A stretch of DNA of 64,000 bases from Candidatus Poribacteria bacterium (GCA_963665235.2 CAXXLX010000001.1:1344001-1408000); one strand, 5' to 3'; positions 58,619 to 63,199 are shown, numbered from the stretch's first letter. The notes: a model not told the origin generated them from the sequence alone. Made by a program: numbers and translations.

Positions 58619-59008
58619 TTAGTCGCTTGTGGTAGGATTTACGGTTACCTCGGGGCGCTCTGCTAAGACGCTGTCGAAGAGGGCGCGTCGCTCTGCTGCC
58701 AAATCTTCATACACAATCCTCGCGATGTCGGGCCCGACTGCCTGGAGTTTATCCTCCAAACCCGCCTCCTGGATACGGACAGTGGCAGTGAAGGCACCCT
58801 TATCCAGATCAAGCGGAAACCCCTCCTCCTGTTTGACACCATCTATGGCATACCGAACACGGCCCATGAAGAGCGGCCCATATCCCTTATGGTACCGGAG
58901 CTCTACGCTGAGCAGTTCTATAGAATCAGTGAAGGGCACACGGCCGGCCAGGTCAAGCGTCCTATACGTGATTTCGAGCCTATTAACGTTATCAACAATA
59001 TGTTTCAT
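58619..59008 (-). CDS. Hypothetical protein; host gene at the OMEGA insertion site
   Basis: ATGAAACAT start abuts the element's right end; its RBS (AAGGAG) lies at 60408-60413, beyond the element. Confidence 0.7.
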   Translation of the reverse strand: MKHIVDNVNRLEITYRTLDLAGRVPFTDSIELLSVELRYHKGYGPLFMGRVRYAIDGVKQEEGFPLDLDKGAFTATVRIQEAGLEDKLQAVGPDIARIVYEDLAAERRALFDSVLAERPEVTVNPTTSD

Positions 59009-59038
59009 CAAAATCTTCGGTGTGGAGACCCCGTTGCT

Positions 59039-59836
59039 TTAGCACGGGGAGGAAACACCGCTCCTATATTGAAAGTTCAAGCGTGTGAGGACTTGAAAAT
59101 CTGTGCGTTTCGCACCCGTTGTGAGGCGTTGACCTTCTAAGCTATAGATAGAAAACACCCCTTTCGCATTAATACCCGTAATAGGATGTCCTCGGTGGGA
59201 CCTCGGACGTGTGATACCGTGTTTGCCGTGCTTTATCAGCGTGTTTTTCACAAGTCCTTCGCCTAACACAGTTCCGCCATATCTTGACCGCATTCCGCCC
59301 TTTGCCGGTTGTTCTCGGTGCAAGTTCCGCCTTGCTACGGGTATCGGGGATATGCAAAAAACGGATGTATTGTCGGGTTTCAGTGCCATGGCTTTCTTTG
59401 TGTTGCCATTGACAACCGAATGTGCCATCACCCAACTATCAACACAATGTGCATAGAAGTCATCAGAGAGTTTGTCTTGGCTCTTCTCTAATCCTAATGC
59501 CTTCCTCCGCGCAGAAGTCCACCTGCCTTTATAGCAAAACACATTTCCAACGCCATAGCGTGCTATCAACTCAGAGACAAACCAGCGTTTACCGACTTCT
59601 AACGGGCTAAAAGATGTGTTCCATCGCTTCTTACCCGGTTTTGTTCTTGCCTTGATGTCCTCCACACAGATTTTTTTGACAGGATACAAGTCAGACAACC
59701 AATCCAGGATGCGGAGTTTCCAATCCCAACGGGCACGCGTGCCTAACGATAGGCGGAACACTAGCCCACAGAGGCTATCTCTAAATGTCCACGCCAATGG
59801 TGTCCGTAGATCCTTTGTTTTGACTGGCACAAACAT
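59039..59836 (-). CDS. isrB: IsrB C-terminal half (RuvC-II 'CVEDI', RuvC-III 'HCVDS', no HNH) with duplicated RBS/ATG
   Basis: Starts MFVPVKTKD from the copied start; TRARWDWKLR, FSPLEVGK, RRNLH, RYGGT. Confidence 0.75.
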   Translation of the reverse strand: MFVPVKTKDLRTPLAWTFRDSLCGLVFRLSLGTRARWDWKLRILDWLSDLYPVKKICVEDIKARTKPGKKRWNTSFSPLEVGKRWFVSELIARYGVGNVFCYKGRWTSARRKALGLEKSQDKLSDDFYAHCVDSWVMAHSVVNGNTKKAMALKPDNTSVFCISPIPVARRNLHREQPAKGGMRSRYGGTVLGEGLVKNTLIKHGKHGITRPRSHRGHPITGINAKGVFSIYSLEGQRLTTGAKRTDFQVLTRLNFQYRSGVSSPC

Positions 59837-60189
59837 AAGTTTGTTTTCTCCTTTCGGGTATATATTGCACACTTCCGAGAACGTCTCCCTCGGCGGAGTT
59901 CACGTCTTTTCTCAACCTTCTTGCCAACTTTGTTATGTGCATCTGCCTGCACGTTCAGATACGTATGGGCCTCAGATTTGACAGTAAATCCCTCTTTCTT
60001 ACTTCCCGGATCCACACCGACAACGATGTCTTGTGTTTCTCTATCACTCGGTTCTTTGTTGAGACGGACACAATAGACACCGTTGTTCCAATAAGGCGTT
60101 GCCTCACCGCGTTTGACAAGTTTCCTCGCACGTGCAGCATGCATCGGCATCAGCTGTTGTCCATCCTTTGTTTTGACTGGCACAAACAT
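59761..60189 (-). CDS. isrB: IsrB N-terminal half (PLMP, RuvC-I, bridge helix) ending in the RecG C-terminal peptide
   Basis: QLMPMHAARARKL, VGVDPGSK, RRELRRGRRSRK, then ...HWRGHLEIASVG* identical to the RecG end. Confidence 0.78.
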   Translation of the reverse strand: MFVPVKTKDGQQLMPMHAARARKLVKRGEATPYWNNGVYCVRLNKEPSDRETQDIVVGVDPGSKKEGFTVKSEAHTYLNVQADAHNKVGKKVEKRRELRRGRRSRKCAIYTRKEKTNLCLCQSKQRIYGHHWRGHLEIASVG

Positions 60190-60199
60190 AAGTTTGTTT

Positions 60200-60416
60200 T
60201 CTCCTTTCGGGTATATATTGCCCCATCCAGATCAGGGGTTCGTAGTGGGATCAGACTTGGGGAGCATCCGAAACATACTTTAGGCTGCCACGCCCAGAAC
60301 CCCCGATATATTACTGTAGTCAACAAGTTACCCTTGTCTCTGTGATAGCCTTGGCGGGCATCAAAGACAAGCCCCCATGCTTTAGCTGGGGGTTATTGAC
60401 TGGAGTTCTCCTTTTC
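60200..60416 (-). ncRNA. Predicted omegaRNA (guide ~60401-60416 from host flank; scaffold 60400 to ~60200)
   Basis: GTCAA...GTTGACTA pairing and 'GGATGCTCCCCAAGTCTG' motif, upstream of the PLMP ORF as in IscB/IsrB loci; ends approximate. Confidence 0.7.
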
Positions 60417-60419
60417 ATA

Positions 60420-60449
60420 AGTTTATCATGCACTATGGCTCTATGTCAA
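60420..60449 (-). promoter_or_regulatory. Host promoter reading into the guide/omegaRNA
   Basis: TTGACA(60449-60444)-18-TAAACT(60425-60420) with TG extended -10. Confidence 0.6.
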
Positions 60450-60526
60450 GGCGATTTCTATAGTGGGTGTGTAAAGTTTTTATACACCCGCAGAGGCATT
60501 TAGCTCTCCTAACGATAGGCGGAACG

Positions 60527-63199
60527 CTAGCCAACAGAGGCTATCTCTAAATGTCCACGCCAATGTGTCCGTAGCATCCGTTTTAAGAGCTGATGTGCCG
60601 GGGCATTTAACCCCGTATCGGACTTTACCAACGCTGCTGCTTCCTTCTTCGCTATCTCTAAGAGAGAAACATCACTGAGGATATTGGCAATTTTAAAATT
60701 AGGTACACCGGACTGACGCGTGCCGAAAAATTCGCCCGGCCCCCGAATGTTCAAATCTTCTTCTGCGATGTCGAACCCGTTATTAGAACGCACCATCACC
60801 TGAATTCGGCGGTATGCATCATCTGTCTTCGGGGTTGCGATGAGATAACATGCAGATTTGTCGCGCCCTCTGCCGACGCGACCCCGCAATTGATGCAGCT
60901 GTGCCAACCCAAATCGTTCCGCGTGTTCAATTACCATCAATGTGGCATTCGGAACATCAATCCCTACCTCAATGACGGTTGTAGAGACCAGTATGTCAAG
61001 TTCACGTGCATTGAATTTTGCCATAATCTCCTGCTTCTCTACAGATTTCATTTGTCCGTGCAGCAACCCGACCCGCAGATGCGGAAAAACATCCTGCTGG
61101 AAGTGTTCCGCCATGGTTGTGGCAGCTTTCAACTCCTCTAATTTCTCGGATTCCTCTACAAGTGGATAAACGATATATGCCTGTTTGCCACGGCGGACCT
61201 CCTGTTCAAGTTTGGCGTAGAACTGTCCTCTGCCCTTTTCTTTGATCCATCGGGTTTCAATTTTCTGTCTGCCGGGGGGCATTTCGTCAATCACAGACAT
61301 GTTCAGGTCACCGTAAACCGTTAAAGAGAGGGTTCTCGGGATGGGGGTGGCAGTCATGACGAGCACATCCGGTGGCAGCTGTGCTGAGGCGAGTGCATCT
61401 TGTGCTTTGCCGCGGAGCGTTGCACGTTGCATCACACCGAACCGGTGCTGTTCATCAATGATAATGAGCCCTAATTTGTGAAAATCCACGCCCTCCTGTA
61501 TCAACGCCTGTGTGCCGACGATGAGATTCGCTGTGCCATCGGCTATTGTCGCCAACGCCTTCTCCCGTTCCGCTTTCGGTAGGTCGCTTTTCAGTAGCAC
61601 AACCTTCACGTTGAAAGGGGCAAACAACGCTGAAAGATTAGTGTGGTGTTGTTCGGCAAGGATTTCGGTTGGGACCATCAGCGCGCCCTGATAACCGTTC
61701 TGAATTGCACATAAGAGTGCCATCGCTGCGACAACAGTTTTTCCGGAGCCGACATCTCCTTGAATCAATCGGTTCATCACGCGTTTGCTCCGCATGTCCT
61801 CTCGGATTTCGGCAAAAACCCGTTTTTGTGCACCAGTCAACGTAAACGGCAGCGCGTTCACAAATTGACTGAGGAGCGAATTGCTCTCCTGTTCACTTTT
61901 TTCAATCTGAAATTGGATGCCGGGCTGTGAAGTCCTGTCGTCCTTCCGGAGTTCCATGCCGAGGCTGAGCAGGAAAAATTCGTCGAACGCCAGCCGTTTC
62001 TGGGCTGCTGTTTGATGCGCTGTAGATGTGGGAAAATGGATTTCGTTAATGGCTTGCTGTCTGTCAATAAGTTGGCACCGTTGCCGAAGTTCGAGCGGTA
62101 AAATTTCGGGAATTTCGGTGCCGTGCTGATCTAATGCAATTCGCATCCAAGTACGAAGCATTTTCGCTGTCAATTTCGCTGTGAGGGGATATTTCGGCAC
62201 AATCCGCTTTGTATGTATCAGATTATCCTCGTCAAACAGTTCAAATTCATAATCTGTCGCCTGGATTTCGTTGTAACGGCGCGAGAACTTACCGCTTACA
62301 ACCACCTCCGTGTCAACAGGGAGTATGGACTTGATATAGCCGATGCGCCGCCCGAAATTGACGAGCACAGCGACACCTGTACCATCGTAAATTGAGACCT
62401 TACCGATGCTCTTTCGTCCTTTACCCGCAGGTTTGTTGGTCGTATGATTGACAACCCGTCCCTGAATCGTCTCCGGTTCACCATCTTCTCTTCTGCCGAC
62501 TTTGTAAATTTCAACGGTTTTTGACCTATCAATGTAGTCGCGCGGGTAGTATTCTAGCAACTCCCCGACTGTTTGAAAACCGAGTTCATTTGACAATATT
62601 TCGGCACGGCGGGGGCCTATGCCTTTGAGATACTGGAGCGGTTTACGCAGAAATTCGAGCGAGTCAACATCCGTTGATACAGGTGTATCTCCAAGTATCA
62701 CAGGTGTTTCGGGAGCCGCCTCGGCAGCCTCGGAAAGCGTGGGTGAGTGCACAGCAGCACTATCGCTGTTTTTAAGCGTGGTGGGCTCTACATCATAGGT
62801 AGCTGGTGCCGGTTCGGATGGCACAGGTGTTTCGCGAAGAACACCTGTGTTCCGAAAAAGGGATAGGTCTTCATGTCTTGCGTTTGTGTCGCGAGGTTGC
62901 TGTGCTGCAGCCTGTCCCGCTTCAGTCTCAGCGAGGGCCGCATCAAGCTGTTCGGTTGCAACCTGTAGCGTCTGTTGGCGTTCTGCTGGCGATAAACTTG
63001 CATAGTTCTCAAAGCGTGCGGCGAGCCCCTTAAGCACCTGTTTTTCATCGGAGGCGAGCGGAAGGGCGTTCCCCCGTTCTACCCAGAGCATCACATAGGC
63101 GCCCAAACCGTTGACGACGACACTGTCTTGACACCCCATGCGAATCTCTTGCTGGAACGGCCGACGGATGGTTGTCAATATTTCTCTTAAATTATCCAT
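60527..63199 (-). CDS. recG: ATP-dependent DNA helicase RecG with N-terminal extension
   Basis: QGDVGSGKT, DEQHRFG, MTATPIPRTL, QLHQLRGRVGR, RGPGEFFGTRQSG. Confidence 0.97.
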   Translation of the reverse strand: MDNLREILTTIRRPFQQEIRMGCQDSVVVNGLGAYVMLWVERGNALPLASDEKQVLKGLAARFENYASLSPAERQQTLQVATEQLDAALAETEAGQAAAQQPRDTNARHEDLSLFRNTGVLRETPVPSEPAPATYDVEPTTLKNSDSAAVHSPTLSEAAEAAPETPVILGDTPVSTDVDSLEFLRKPLQYLKGIGPRRAEILSNELGFQTVGELLEYYPRDYIDRSKTVEIYKVGRREDGEPETIQGRVVNHTTNKPAGKGRKSIGKVSIYDGTGVAVLVNFGRRIGYIKSILPVDTEVVVSGKFSRRYNEIQATDYEFELFDEDNLIHTKRIVPKYPLTAKLTAKMLRTWMRIALDQHGTEIPEILPLELRQRCQLIDRQQAINEIHFPTSTAHQTAAQKRLAFDEFFLLSLGMELRKDDRTSQPGIQFQIEKSEQESNSLLSQFVNALPFTLTGAQKRVFAEIREDMRSKRVMNRLIQGDVGSGKTVVAAMALLCAIQNGYQGALMVPTEILAEQHHTNLSALFAPFNVKVVLLKSDLPKAEREKALATIADGTANLIVGTQALIQEGVDFHKLGLIIIDEQHRFGVMQRATLRGKAQDALASAQLPPDVLVMTATPIPRTLSLTVYGDLNMSVIDEMPPGRQKIETRWIKEKGRGQFYAKLEQEVRRGKQAYIVYPLVEESEKLEELKAATTMAEHFQQDVFPHLRVGLLHGQMKSVEKQEIMAKFNARELDILVSTTVIEVGIDVPNATLMVIEHAERFGLAQLHQLRGRVGRGRDKSACYLIATPKTDDAYRRIQVMVRSNNGFDIAEEDLNIRGPGEFFGTRQSGVPNFKIANILSDVSLLEIAKKEAAALVKSDTGLNAPAHQLLKRMLRTHWRGHLEIASVG

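Follow-up and report, generated by a model that had tools for sequence, protein, structure and literature searches.

The isrB gene of a transposable element in a 64,000-nucleotide stretch of Candidatus Poribacteria DNA (here called the window) carries a 127-bp composite block in place of 54 bp of its coding sequence. The block is probably the scar of a recent, three-junction, microhomology-assisted template-switch event that broke the nuclease gene and left the non-autonomous element with an intact omegaRNA.

The element is a member of the IS200/IS605 type and encodes an omegaRNA together with the IsrB nickase. It follows recG immediately on the downstream side and separates the next gene's RBS from its ATG. 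It is regarded as non-autonomous because neither ORF nor Pfam searches find a Y1 (HUH) transposase TnpA within it, and Y1 transposases are present only elsewhere in the genome (13 matches, 12 of them above the cut-off). The 5' flank (60401-60449, minus strand) includes a promoter-like site (TTGACA-18-TAAACT, 60449-60420, minus strand; no commoner than in shuffled sequences), an AAGGAG at 60413-60408 (minus strand), and a putative guide; by analogy with the IsrB biology reported in PMC9581776, the approximately 20 nt at 60420-60401 would serve as the omegaRNA guide. Homology among seven copies of the element begins at 60400. The putative HEARO-like omegaRNA scaffold (60190-60400, minus strand) is intact in the window's copy. 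Its RF02033 (HEARO) match at 60213-60400 scores 32.8 bits (E 2e-4), under the Rfam gathering score of 83; the stretch directly upstream of isrB is conserved among sibling copies, and the scaffold differs from that of the sibling at C1:1442407-1443734 by one substitution and by a single 3-nt indel that has another substitution next to it.

Subterminal imperfect palindromes (repeat D3) are found at both transposon ends. The omegaRNA-side palindrome (60372-60392, plus strand) is predicted to fold into a hairpin containing a single bulged base (-7.0 kcal/mol), and the palindrome on the isrB 3' side (59029-59049, plus strand) a one-bulge hairpin (-7.4 kcal/mol, z -3.8). Terminal inverted repeats are absent, as the repeat search returned 0 inverted pairs. 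The sequence common to the copies ends at ATGA, a TAM-like tetranucleotide (59005-59008, minus strand) whose ATG doubles as the start of a downstream 130-aa ORF. This shared sequence ends in GATGA in six of the seven aligned copies and in GAGGA in one; the TAM reported for DtIsrB is NTGA (PMC9581776).

The genome has 26 IsrB loci, 19 of which are open across the whole match. An intact sibling (359 aa) aligns to DtIsrB (8DMB) over residues 3-299 (E 6.8e-26) and matches Pfam RRXRR over residues 3-157 (E 3.4e-30); the N-terminal half of the window's copy matches the same family over residues 3-107 (E 8.4e-24). No HNH is detected between RuvC-II and RuvC-III, where the alignment is contiguous and Pfam gives no HNH family at E up to 1. 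All 19 full-length paralogues (64-100% identical) share a linker of 18 residues whose two ends, CPNRK and PAG (PAGTRARWDW), are invariant. Relative to a sibling some 39 kb distant, the window's copy shows just 3 substitutions and one small indel outside the block; the changes there amount to about 5 in about 1270 nt.

Alignment to intact IsrB copies, a check proposed by the first-pass annotation, sizes the replaced segment at 54 bp. In six aligned sibling copies this segment comprises 18 codons (PNRKNRTNKGANRQKLPA), which encode residues 108-125 of an intact protein of 359 aa. The annotation had described a foreign insert; the block is confirmed in the sequence, but it is a replacement (a delins) rather than a pure insertion. 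Residues 108-125 align to DtIsrB 113-131, which is the REC linker (113-129) plus two residues, and the 8DMB alignment indicates that the N-terminal half retains the bridge helix to its final residue. The domain limits are those given for DtIsrB in PMC9581776, with numbering checked on P17, P20, R100, R104, F119, and R124; the linker mutants F119A and R124A are reported there to reduce nicking. Whereas 19 paralogues encode one unbroken chain in which a REC linker connects the bridge helix to RuvC-II, the window's copy has other sequence in place of residues 108-125 and its ORF falls into two pieces.

The block has two parts, both on the minus strand and both in direct orientation to templates in cis. 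The first (59810-59868) is an exact 59-nt copy (100% identical in the repeat search of the window) of 60163-60221, which comprises the omegaRNA 3' end, the RBS AAGGAG, the ATG, and isrB codons 1-9. The second (59742-59809) is a 68-nt copy of 60508-60574, the recG stop region, made up of the final 15 codons, the stop, and the next 19 nt. The repeat search pairs 59742-59799 with 60508-60565 (58 nt, 97% identical), and global alignment extends the pair to full length with 2 substitutions and a 1-nt insertion. Both copies had been noted in the first-pass annotation, and both hold exactly as described. The templates lie 353 bp (omegaRNA/start region) and 766 bp (recG) upstream of their copies on the same strand, and repeats of this length, exact and near-exact, are far beyond chance. 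The recG gene itself (890 aa, 60527-63199, minus strand) provides the template of the second part with its final codons and stop. Since the last 100 aa of the window's RecG match homologues through the final residue in 12 of 12 relatives, the recG end is the original and 59742-59809 the copy; no third copy of the recG-tail sequence is found in the genome.

The composite block was seen in none of 40 relatives, its junction words are absent from two public contig collections (metagenome_contigs and genome_contigs), and a search for runs containing it turned up none. The search of other strains and copies suggested earlier thus turned up no second instance, and the split form shows neither recurrence nor conservation across these relatives and collections. 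On these searches and the comparison with the near-identical sibling, the event is unique and recent.

Junction alignment gives no microhomology at the first junction (J1), an AGG microhomology at the third (J3), and, at the junction between the two copied tracts (J2), four more shared bases (GGAT) if a 1-nt deletion is allowed. In the proposed mechanism, a single recent repair or replication accident would have swapped 54 bp of the REC linker for two short tracts, the nascent strand changing template three times and copying first 59 nt of the omegaRNA/start-codon region and then 68 nt of the recG stop region. Two of these switches would have been assisted by microhomology (GGAT, within AAAAC..GGAT, and AGG), and the recG-derived tract would have been copied with errors. 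MMBIR/FoSTeS-type synthesis is error-prone, and at least 3 of the 68 nt in the recG-derived tract are affected by changes, against the background outside the block given above (binomial P 0.0025); the 59-nt tract has none. Of the two readings offered in the first-pass annotation, an inactivating multi-template-switch scar agrees with the cis templates, the microhomology at two of three junctions, the clustered changes in the recG patch, the unique and recent event, and the conservation of the lost segment in all 19 intact paralogues.

The single-event account has two weak points. No microhomology is found at J1, and a single polymerase run offers no obvious explanation for an error-free 59-nt tract beside a 68-nt tract with several errors. 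A real scar with a history of at least two steps, or with a different origin, would accommodate this contrast, as the unequal error load fits two events or two polymerases. In one variant, a tandem duplication of 353 bp would have come first, and the recG tract would then have filled a later deletion; J1 is the junction expected of a tandem duplication of 60221-59869. Another is a reverse transcriptase that copies a read-through recG-omegaRNA-isrB transcript during end joining: one potential transcript holds both templates, the genome has one reverse-transcriptase gene, and no Ku is found in this genome, which is 92.6% complete. A bacterial group-II-intron-like reverse transcriptase has been reported in microhomology-mediated end joining (bioRxiv 10.1101/2022.03.14.484287). 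Yet no intermediate appears in the genome or in the 40 relatives, and the extra steps are less parsimonious; such histories are distinctly improbable.

It is also unlikely, if slightly less so, that the block is absent from the organism's DNA and reflects a library or assembly artefact (a chimeric molecule or a mis-joined repeat). The junctions are known from the assembly alone, and the more than 20 copies of the element in the genome make local assembly harder. Against an artefact, all three tracts are direct and lie within 800 bp on the same molecule, whereas amplification chimeras are mostly inverted; exactly 54 bp are replaced and the sequence is rejoined in the gene's own register. No errors mark the flanks relative to the sibling and 19 paralogues are fully open, and base accuracy is therefore high. 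Polishing with true recG-tail reads would, moreover, draw the copy toward recG rather than away from it.

Under the template-switch account, the gene would be broken: its N-terminal 107 residues run on to a stop, the copied RBS-ATG reopens the remainder by chance, and the REC linker is lost with its conserved CPNRK and PAG ends. The element could still be guided and moved because its omegaRNA and transposon ends are intact, with near-identical IsrB paralogues and Y1 transposases elsewhere in the genome acting in trans; served in this way, it would probably experience the loss of isrB as neutral.

Two reading frames result from the replacement. The N-half ORF (142 aa, 59761-60189, minus strand) includes the PLMP motif, RuvC-I, and the bridge helix in full (residues 1-107), followed by 35 read-through residues. 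It terminates in RRGRRSRKC, AIYTRKEKTNLCLCQSKQRIYGH, and HWRGHLEIASVG, stopping at the copied recG stop, and its final 12 residues equal RecG's own C-terminal end, as the first-pass annotation had stated. The proposal that this tail is an interaction tag is not favoured, as its presence on the N-half is a coincidence of frame. The C-half ORF (265 aa, 59039-59836, minus strand) opens, as claimed, at the copied ATG (59836) with a 32-residue leader, MFVPVKTKD and then 23 residues through the recG copy, before continuing as TRARWDW and the remainder of IsrB residues 126-359. These residues comprise RuvC-II, the HNH linker, RuvC-III, and the WED/TI region, matched to 8DMB via the intact sibling. 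The 68-nt recG copy can be read through in frame 0 alone, which in the native gene is the frame of RecG itself and ends at its stop; the 1-nt insertion was correctly identified as what keeps the C-half open. By reasoning from this reading-frame analysis, the copied ATG has a chance of about 1 in 9 of both matching RuvC-II in phase and falling in the sole open frame, and an earlier figure of 1 in 3 is revised accordingly, both conditions being needed.

Several observations count against a scar. The cut matches domain borders within 0-2 residues, the restart is in phase and uses the sole open frame, no catalytic residue is lost, and the halves are predicted to dock. Together these make a working split less absurd than it would be for a random break; screening many windows will favour such coincidences.

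A working two-chain IsrB would require that both ORFs be translated and that the halves reassemble with the omegaRNA to bind or nick guide-matched DNA in the absence of the REC linker. Translation signals are present for both halves, and at every letter the copied RBS, spacer, and ATG match what intact genes use; the local RNA fold near the copied start is similar to the native one, although not significantly so against shuffles. The three RuvC acidic motifs, whose retention had been claimed, align with DtIsrB residues (GVDPG/AVDPG, VEDI/TEDV, and HCVDS/HANDA), so that the catalytic D/E/D set is kept. The split falls after the bridge helix and before RuvC-II, a site that accepts large inserts in IscB: cleavage in vitro was reported to be kept in 12 of 14 IscB REC chimeras (PMC13180657). 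Structure prediction of both halves, another check put forward at the outset, docks them through the RuvC core with an ipSAE of 0.85 (best control, 0.00). Of 78 solved complexes, 51 attained that mark, as did 2 of 108 mismatched pairs; agreement between the runs covers at least 73% of contacts, with a partner pLDDT of at least 69. Such docking is expected because the halves are two pieces of one solved fold. The pass may derive from likeness to IsrB solved as one chain (8DMB), and the model points to complementary pieces of one fold rather than to assembly in the cell.

The lost linker counts on the other side. In 19 of 19 paralogues its length does not vary and its ends are invariant, and it holds the counterparts of F119 and R124, reported as important for DtIsrB nicking (PMC9581776). 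In IscB, conserved motifs beside REC inserts are described as retained anchors (PMC13180657); their equivalents, as read from the 8DMB alignment, are deleted here. Two chains would need to build an RNase H-like RuvC core between them, the event is unique and too young for selection to serve as a test, the copy is dispensable alongside 19 open paralogues, and frame alone accounts for the N-half's RecG tail. Of the two-subunit nickase once suggested, there stand the two ORFs with starts and the predicted docking, a support that exists on paper only, and the conserved linker is gone. A functional two-chain enzyme is therefore very improbable. If real, it would be a live snapshot of foreign coding DNA landing at the very position from which Cas9 later developed its REC lobe, and it would offer compact editors a ready-made point at which to be split.

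Among known systems, the intact sibling resembles DtIsrB (8DMB) in its PLMP motif, RRXRR/bridge helix, RuvC I-III residues, and lack of HNH, as does the element in its upstream HEARO-like RNA and in a terminal ATGA that fits the NTGA TAM on sequence. Unlike DtIsrB, the window's copy has unrelated sequence for the REC linker and an ORF in two pieces, and its omegaRNA match falls short of the Rfam gathering score. REC inserts in the IscB/Cas9 line are reported to occupy the segment after the bridge helix (PMC9581776, PMC13180657), and the foreign sequence here lies at that same site, which bears out this part of the first-pass annotation. However, natural and engineered REC inserts are in frame and retain their conserved flanking motifs, whereas this block breaks the frame and removes, rather than extends, the linker and its conserved flanks. 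Engineered split Cas9 consists of a REC lobe and a nuclease lobe as separate chains joined by guide RNA. The split IsrB would likewise be a two-chain, RNA-guided RuvC nuclease, perhaps held together by RNA and split beside the bridge helix; in contrast to the separation of whole lobes, the division here runs through the RuvC core, and a conserved linker is lost. A literature search on split IscB, split IsrB, and split TnpB returned no relevant paper. MMBIR, in which polymerase template switching at microhomology is reported to yield templated insertions (PMC8421209), shares with the scar nearby templates, 0-4 nt of microhomology, replacement of the original sequence, and extra point changes, yet MMBIR/FoSTeS is known mostly from yeast and human, whereas this case is bacterial, and its three switches are all direct and span no more than 1.5 kb. 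Like other non-autonomous IS200/IS605 elements with an OMEGA nuclease and no tnpA, the element has bulged subterminal palindromes at both ends, no terminal inverted repeats, a conserved tetranucleotide at one end, and Y1 transposases elsewhere in the genome. Nothing is unusual at the level of the element; the oddity is its internal scar.

The disrupted isrB gene lies downstream of recG (60527-63199, minus strand) on the same strand, and is best explained as one dispensable IsrB copy that was broken when a recent template-switch deletion-insertion replaced its REC linker; the omegaRNA and the transposon ends of this copy are left intact. The 127-bp foreign block consists of two copied tracts, both described in the first-pass annotation and both recovered by repeat search and global alignment. 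Positions 59810-59868 are an exact 59-nt copy of 60163-60221, and positions 59742-59799 share 97% identity with 60508-60565, a recG-tail pair that reaches 59809/60574 in global alignment with 2 substitutions and a 1-nt insertion. Sizing of the replaced segment against intact homologues, as the annotation had advised, gives 54 bp in an alignment with six siblings; the codons missing from the broken copy are those of residues 108-125, PNRKNRTNKGANRQKLPA.

The block leaves two open reading frames, and these read as first described. The N-half (59761-60189, minus strand; 142 aa) runs through SRKCAIYTRK at the junction and ends in HWRGHLEIASVG followed by a stop, which is RecG's own end. The C-half (265 aa, minus strand) starts at the copied ATG at 59836 with the leader sequence MFVPVKTKDLRTPLAW and continues into TRARWDW. 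The 68 nt derived from recG are open in only one of three frames, and the importance attached to the 1-nt insertion holds: without the extra base, the restart would follow the RecG frame into its stop.

The genome carries many copies of the host element (93 DNA matches), and tblastn with an intact copy finds 26 IsrB loci. The N-half matches the Pfam family RRXRR (E 8.4e-24), and 60213-60400 matches HEARO below threshold (32.8 bits vs a gathering score of 83; E 2e-4). The intact sibling (C1:1442444-1443520; 359 aa), which lies about 39 kb away, aligns to the solved IsrB structure, DtIsrB (8DMB), over residues 3-299 (E 6.8e-26); only its N-terminal part aligns to IscB structures, and Pfam finds no HNH domain in it. 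Sequence common to seven close copies begins at 60400 and stops at 59005, and six of the seven have GATGA at the end of this shared sequence, which fits the NTGA TAM of DtIsrB (PMC9581776). Repeat search and folds place an imperfect palindrome with one bulged base at both element ends, the repeat search of the element finds no inverted terminal repeats, and no transposase lies within it. Thirteen Y1_Tnp matches occur elsewhere in the genome, 12 of them above the cut-off. On these sequence features, the element is an ordinary non-autonomous IsrB element of the IS200/IS605 type.

Several further features of the element and its neighbors were observed. On one side of the element (60401-60449, minus strand) stand a promoter-like TTGACA-18-TAAACT, from a promoter scan that does not rise above shuffles, and AAGGAG; on the other (59005-59011, minus strand), the ATG of a 130-aa ORF (58619-59008) lies within a TAM-like ATGA. 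With the element flanked in this way, the signals of the host gene would drive the omegaRNA, whose guide would be the 5' leader of that gene, the 130-aa ORF. In two sibling copies (C1:2521948-2522060 and C1:3814675-3814780), about 62-68 nt of additional sequence separate the omegaRNA end from the RBS, and one of the two (C1:3813655-3814700) has many small deletions. An exact 28-nt repeat, ACGTCCGAGGTCCCACCGAGGACATCCT (about 59184-59211, minus strand), has its core at 19 places in the genome, among them C1:2521645, C1:893122, C1:727689, and C1:546732. The longer IsrB paralogues carry it as 8 in-frame codons of their TI-domain region, and the 342-aa paralogues lack it. Two other copies have it in inverted orientation within the bridge helix, and one of these is still an open frame of 367 aa. 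Outside IsrB genes it occurs in at least 7 places, with a tandem expansion near C1:893122. The repeat is identical even where flanks are just 64-75% alike, which suggests a very small module, either mobile or subject to gene conversion.

In 12 of 12 relatives, homologues align with the terminal 100 residues of RecG through to their own final residue, and the RecG of the closest relative ends in HWKGHLEIASIG followed by a stop (translated by eye). The tail is therefore native to RecG, and the copy borne by isrB derives from recG; a search of the genome finds no third copy of the tract. RecG itself is 890 aa long, with a long low-complexity N-terminal extension, and relatives have open frames of 848-957 aa around their RecG match. 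The two templates of the block are found 353 and 766 bp upstream of it, on the same strand. The junction from the gene into the 59-nt tract has no microhomology, that between the two tracts has GGAT (inside AAAAC..GGAT, with one base skipped), and that from the recG tract back into the gene has AGG. Outside the block, 3 substitutions, plus one 3-nt indel next to a further substitution, separate the broken copy from the intact sibling. Within it, the 59-nt tract is free of changes and the 68-nt recG tract has at least 3, for which the background rate gives a P of about 0.0025. A single episode of error-prone synthesis is the simplest account: the nascent strand would have changed template three times and so stitched the 59-nt and 68-nt tracts into isrB. 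Ku was not found in the genome, which is 92.6% complete, and there is one reverse-transcriptase gene, so the block could also have arisen by other routes.

A nick by IsrB at the linker was considered as the trigger. The 20-nt stretches preceding the 5' ends of 16 genomic omegaRNAs served as guides; at up to 5 mismatches over the 16 TAM-proximal nt beside NTGA, none matches the broken copy or the intact sibling. With 0 of 16 guides matching the site, there is no sign that such a nick started the event; any tie to the nick-and-repair cycle of the element is speculation. The 10-mer CATCCGTTTT, which stands beside the recG stop region, was rejected as a lead because its genomic contexts are unrelated. 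It is additionally found in an insert of two other element copies, and it occurs 84 times in the genome vs roughly 10 expected from genome size (an estimate). Among relatives that have recG, the nearest (G003) carries another gene downstream of it and so offers no empty target site.

An origin of the block in assembly or library preparation is improbable: although no public run was found to hold it, its tracts are in direct orientation, re-entry into the gene is clean, and the base accuracy of the surrounding assembly is high. Fourteen candidate runs were listed, the top one holding 0.49 of sampled words. The listed contigs of four runs (X1, X4, X7, and X6), placed on 59450-60700, neither cover nor bridge 59744-59868; missing contig cover cannot show absence, and these contigs neither support nor refute the block. 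The loose contig ends, at 59744 and 59869, read into the intact 54-bp form, which is expected from the other copies. In the RNA library X6 (a metatranscriptome), one contig links 59743 to 59869 through 54 other letters; it represents a related IsrB copy whose linker is intact, with DNA carry-over possible. Words across the first junction (27 nt) and the second (25 nt) have 0 matches in metagenome_contigs, from which the own genome may be excluded, and the second has 0 in genome_contigs, a scan that may likewise exclude the window's genome.

The structure of DtIsrB defines what was lost. With 8DMB numbering anchored by a phmmer alignment at six residues from the structure paper (P17, P20, R100, R104, F119, and R124), the bridge helix (DtIsrB 92-112) falls on residues 87-107 of the present protein and the REC linker (113-129) on residues 108-123. 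The N-half thus retains the bridge helix up to its last residue, and the deletion takes out the REC linker plus two residues. According to PMC9581776, linker residues 113-124 of DtIsrB sit in grooves of the omegaRNA and heteroduplex, and F119A and R124A reduce nicking. Within the genome, all 19 paralogues whose frame is open across the entire match (64-100% identity) have an 18-residue linker, with CPNRK before it and PAGTRARWDW after it invariant.

The annotation had offered both a repair scar and a working two-subunit nickase; the former stands as the best explanation, and the latter has against it the lost conserved linker and the search for a recurrence, which found none in 40 relatives or two contig collections. 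That the two halves act together as IsrB is highly improbable, even though the copied RBS-ATG is the same as the native one, the catalytic residues are retained, the cut coincides with domain borders, and the restarted frame is both open and in register, for which chance gives about 1 in 9. A complex model does dock the halves via the RuvC core (ipSAE 0.85 vs 0.00 for the best control; runs agreeing in at least 73% of contacts, partner pLDDT at least 69), at a mark that 51 of 78 solved complexes attained, as did 2 of 108 mismatched pairs. However, this pass is expected of pieces of a fold solved as one chain, and the model indicates complementarity of the halves, not assembly in a cell. A working pair would have to fold its RuvC core from two chains, the event is recent, and a scan of very many windows will surface coincidences of such size. 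Moreover, the nineteen open paralogues could load the intact omegaRNA of the broken copy, so nothing maintains the broken ORF. Native and copied start regions have similar folds, and neither departs from shuffles in Shine-Dalgarno accessibility. For the phrases searched, the literature gave no paper on split IscB, IsrB, or TnpB, and nothing specific on broken IsrB or IscB copies.

The element itself is of a known kind, and the scar, though neat, is one isolated mutational event, of modest interest unless the two halves prove active together. If they did, at low odds, editors of the IsrB type would gain a split point found in nature. Taken as a scar, the block offers a clean natural case of a three-switch templated deletion-insertion in a bacterium whose genome yielded no Ku, with templates, junctions, and an intact sister copy all at hand for comparison. 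The life cycle of the element that carries it includes excision, RNA-guided nicking, and recombinational repair; one event is not enough to establish a preferred route. The proposed event is of the kind described in PMC8421209 as microhomology-mediated template switching. In PMC13180657, engineered IscB tolerates REC inserts at the equivalent site with conserved flanking motifs retained, and 12 of 14 such chimeras still cut in vitro. In contrast to these chimeras, the broken IsrB copy has lost the equivalents of the flanking motifs, an equivalence read from the alignment.
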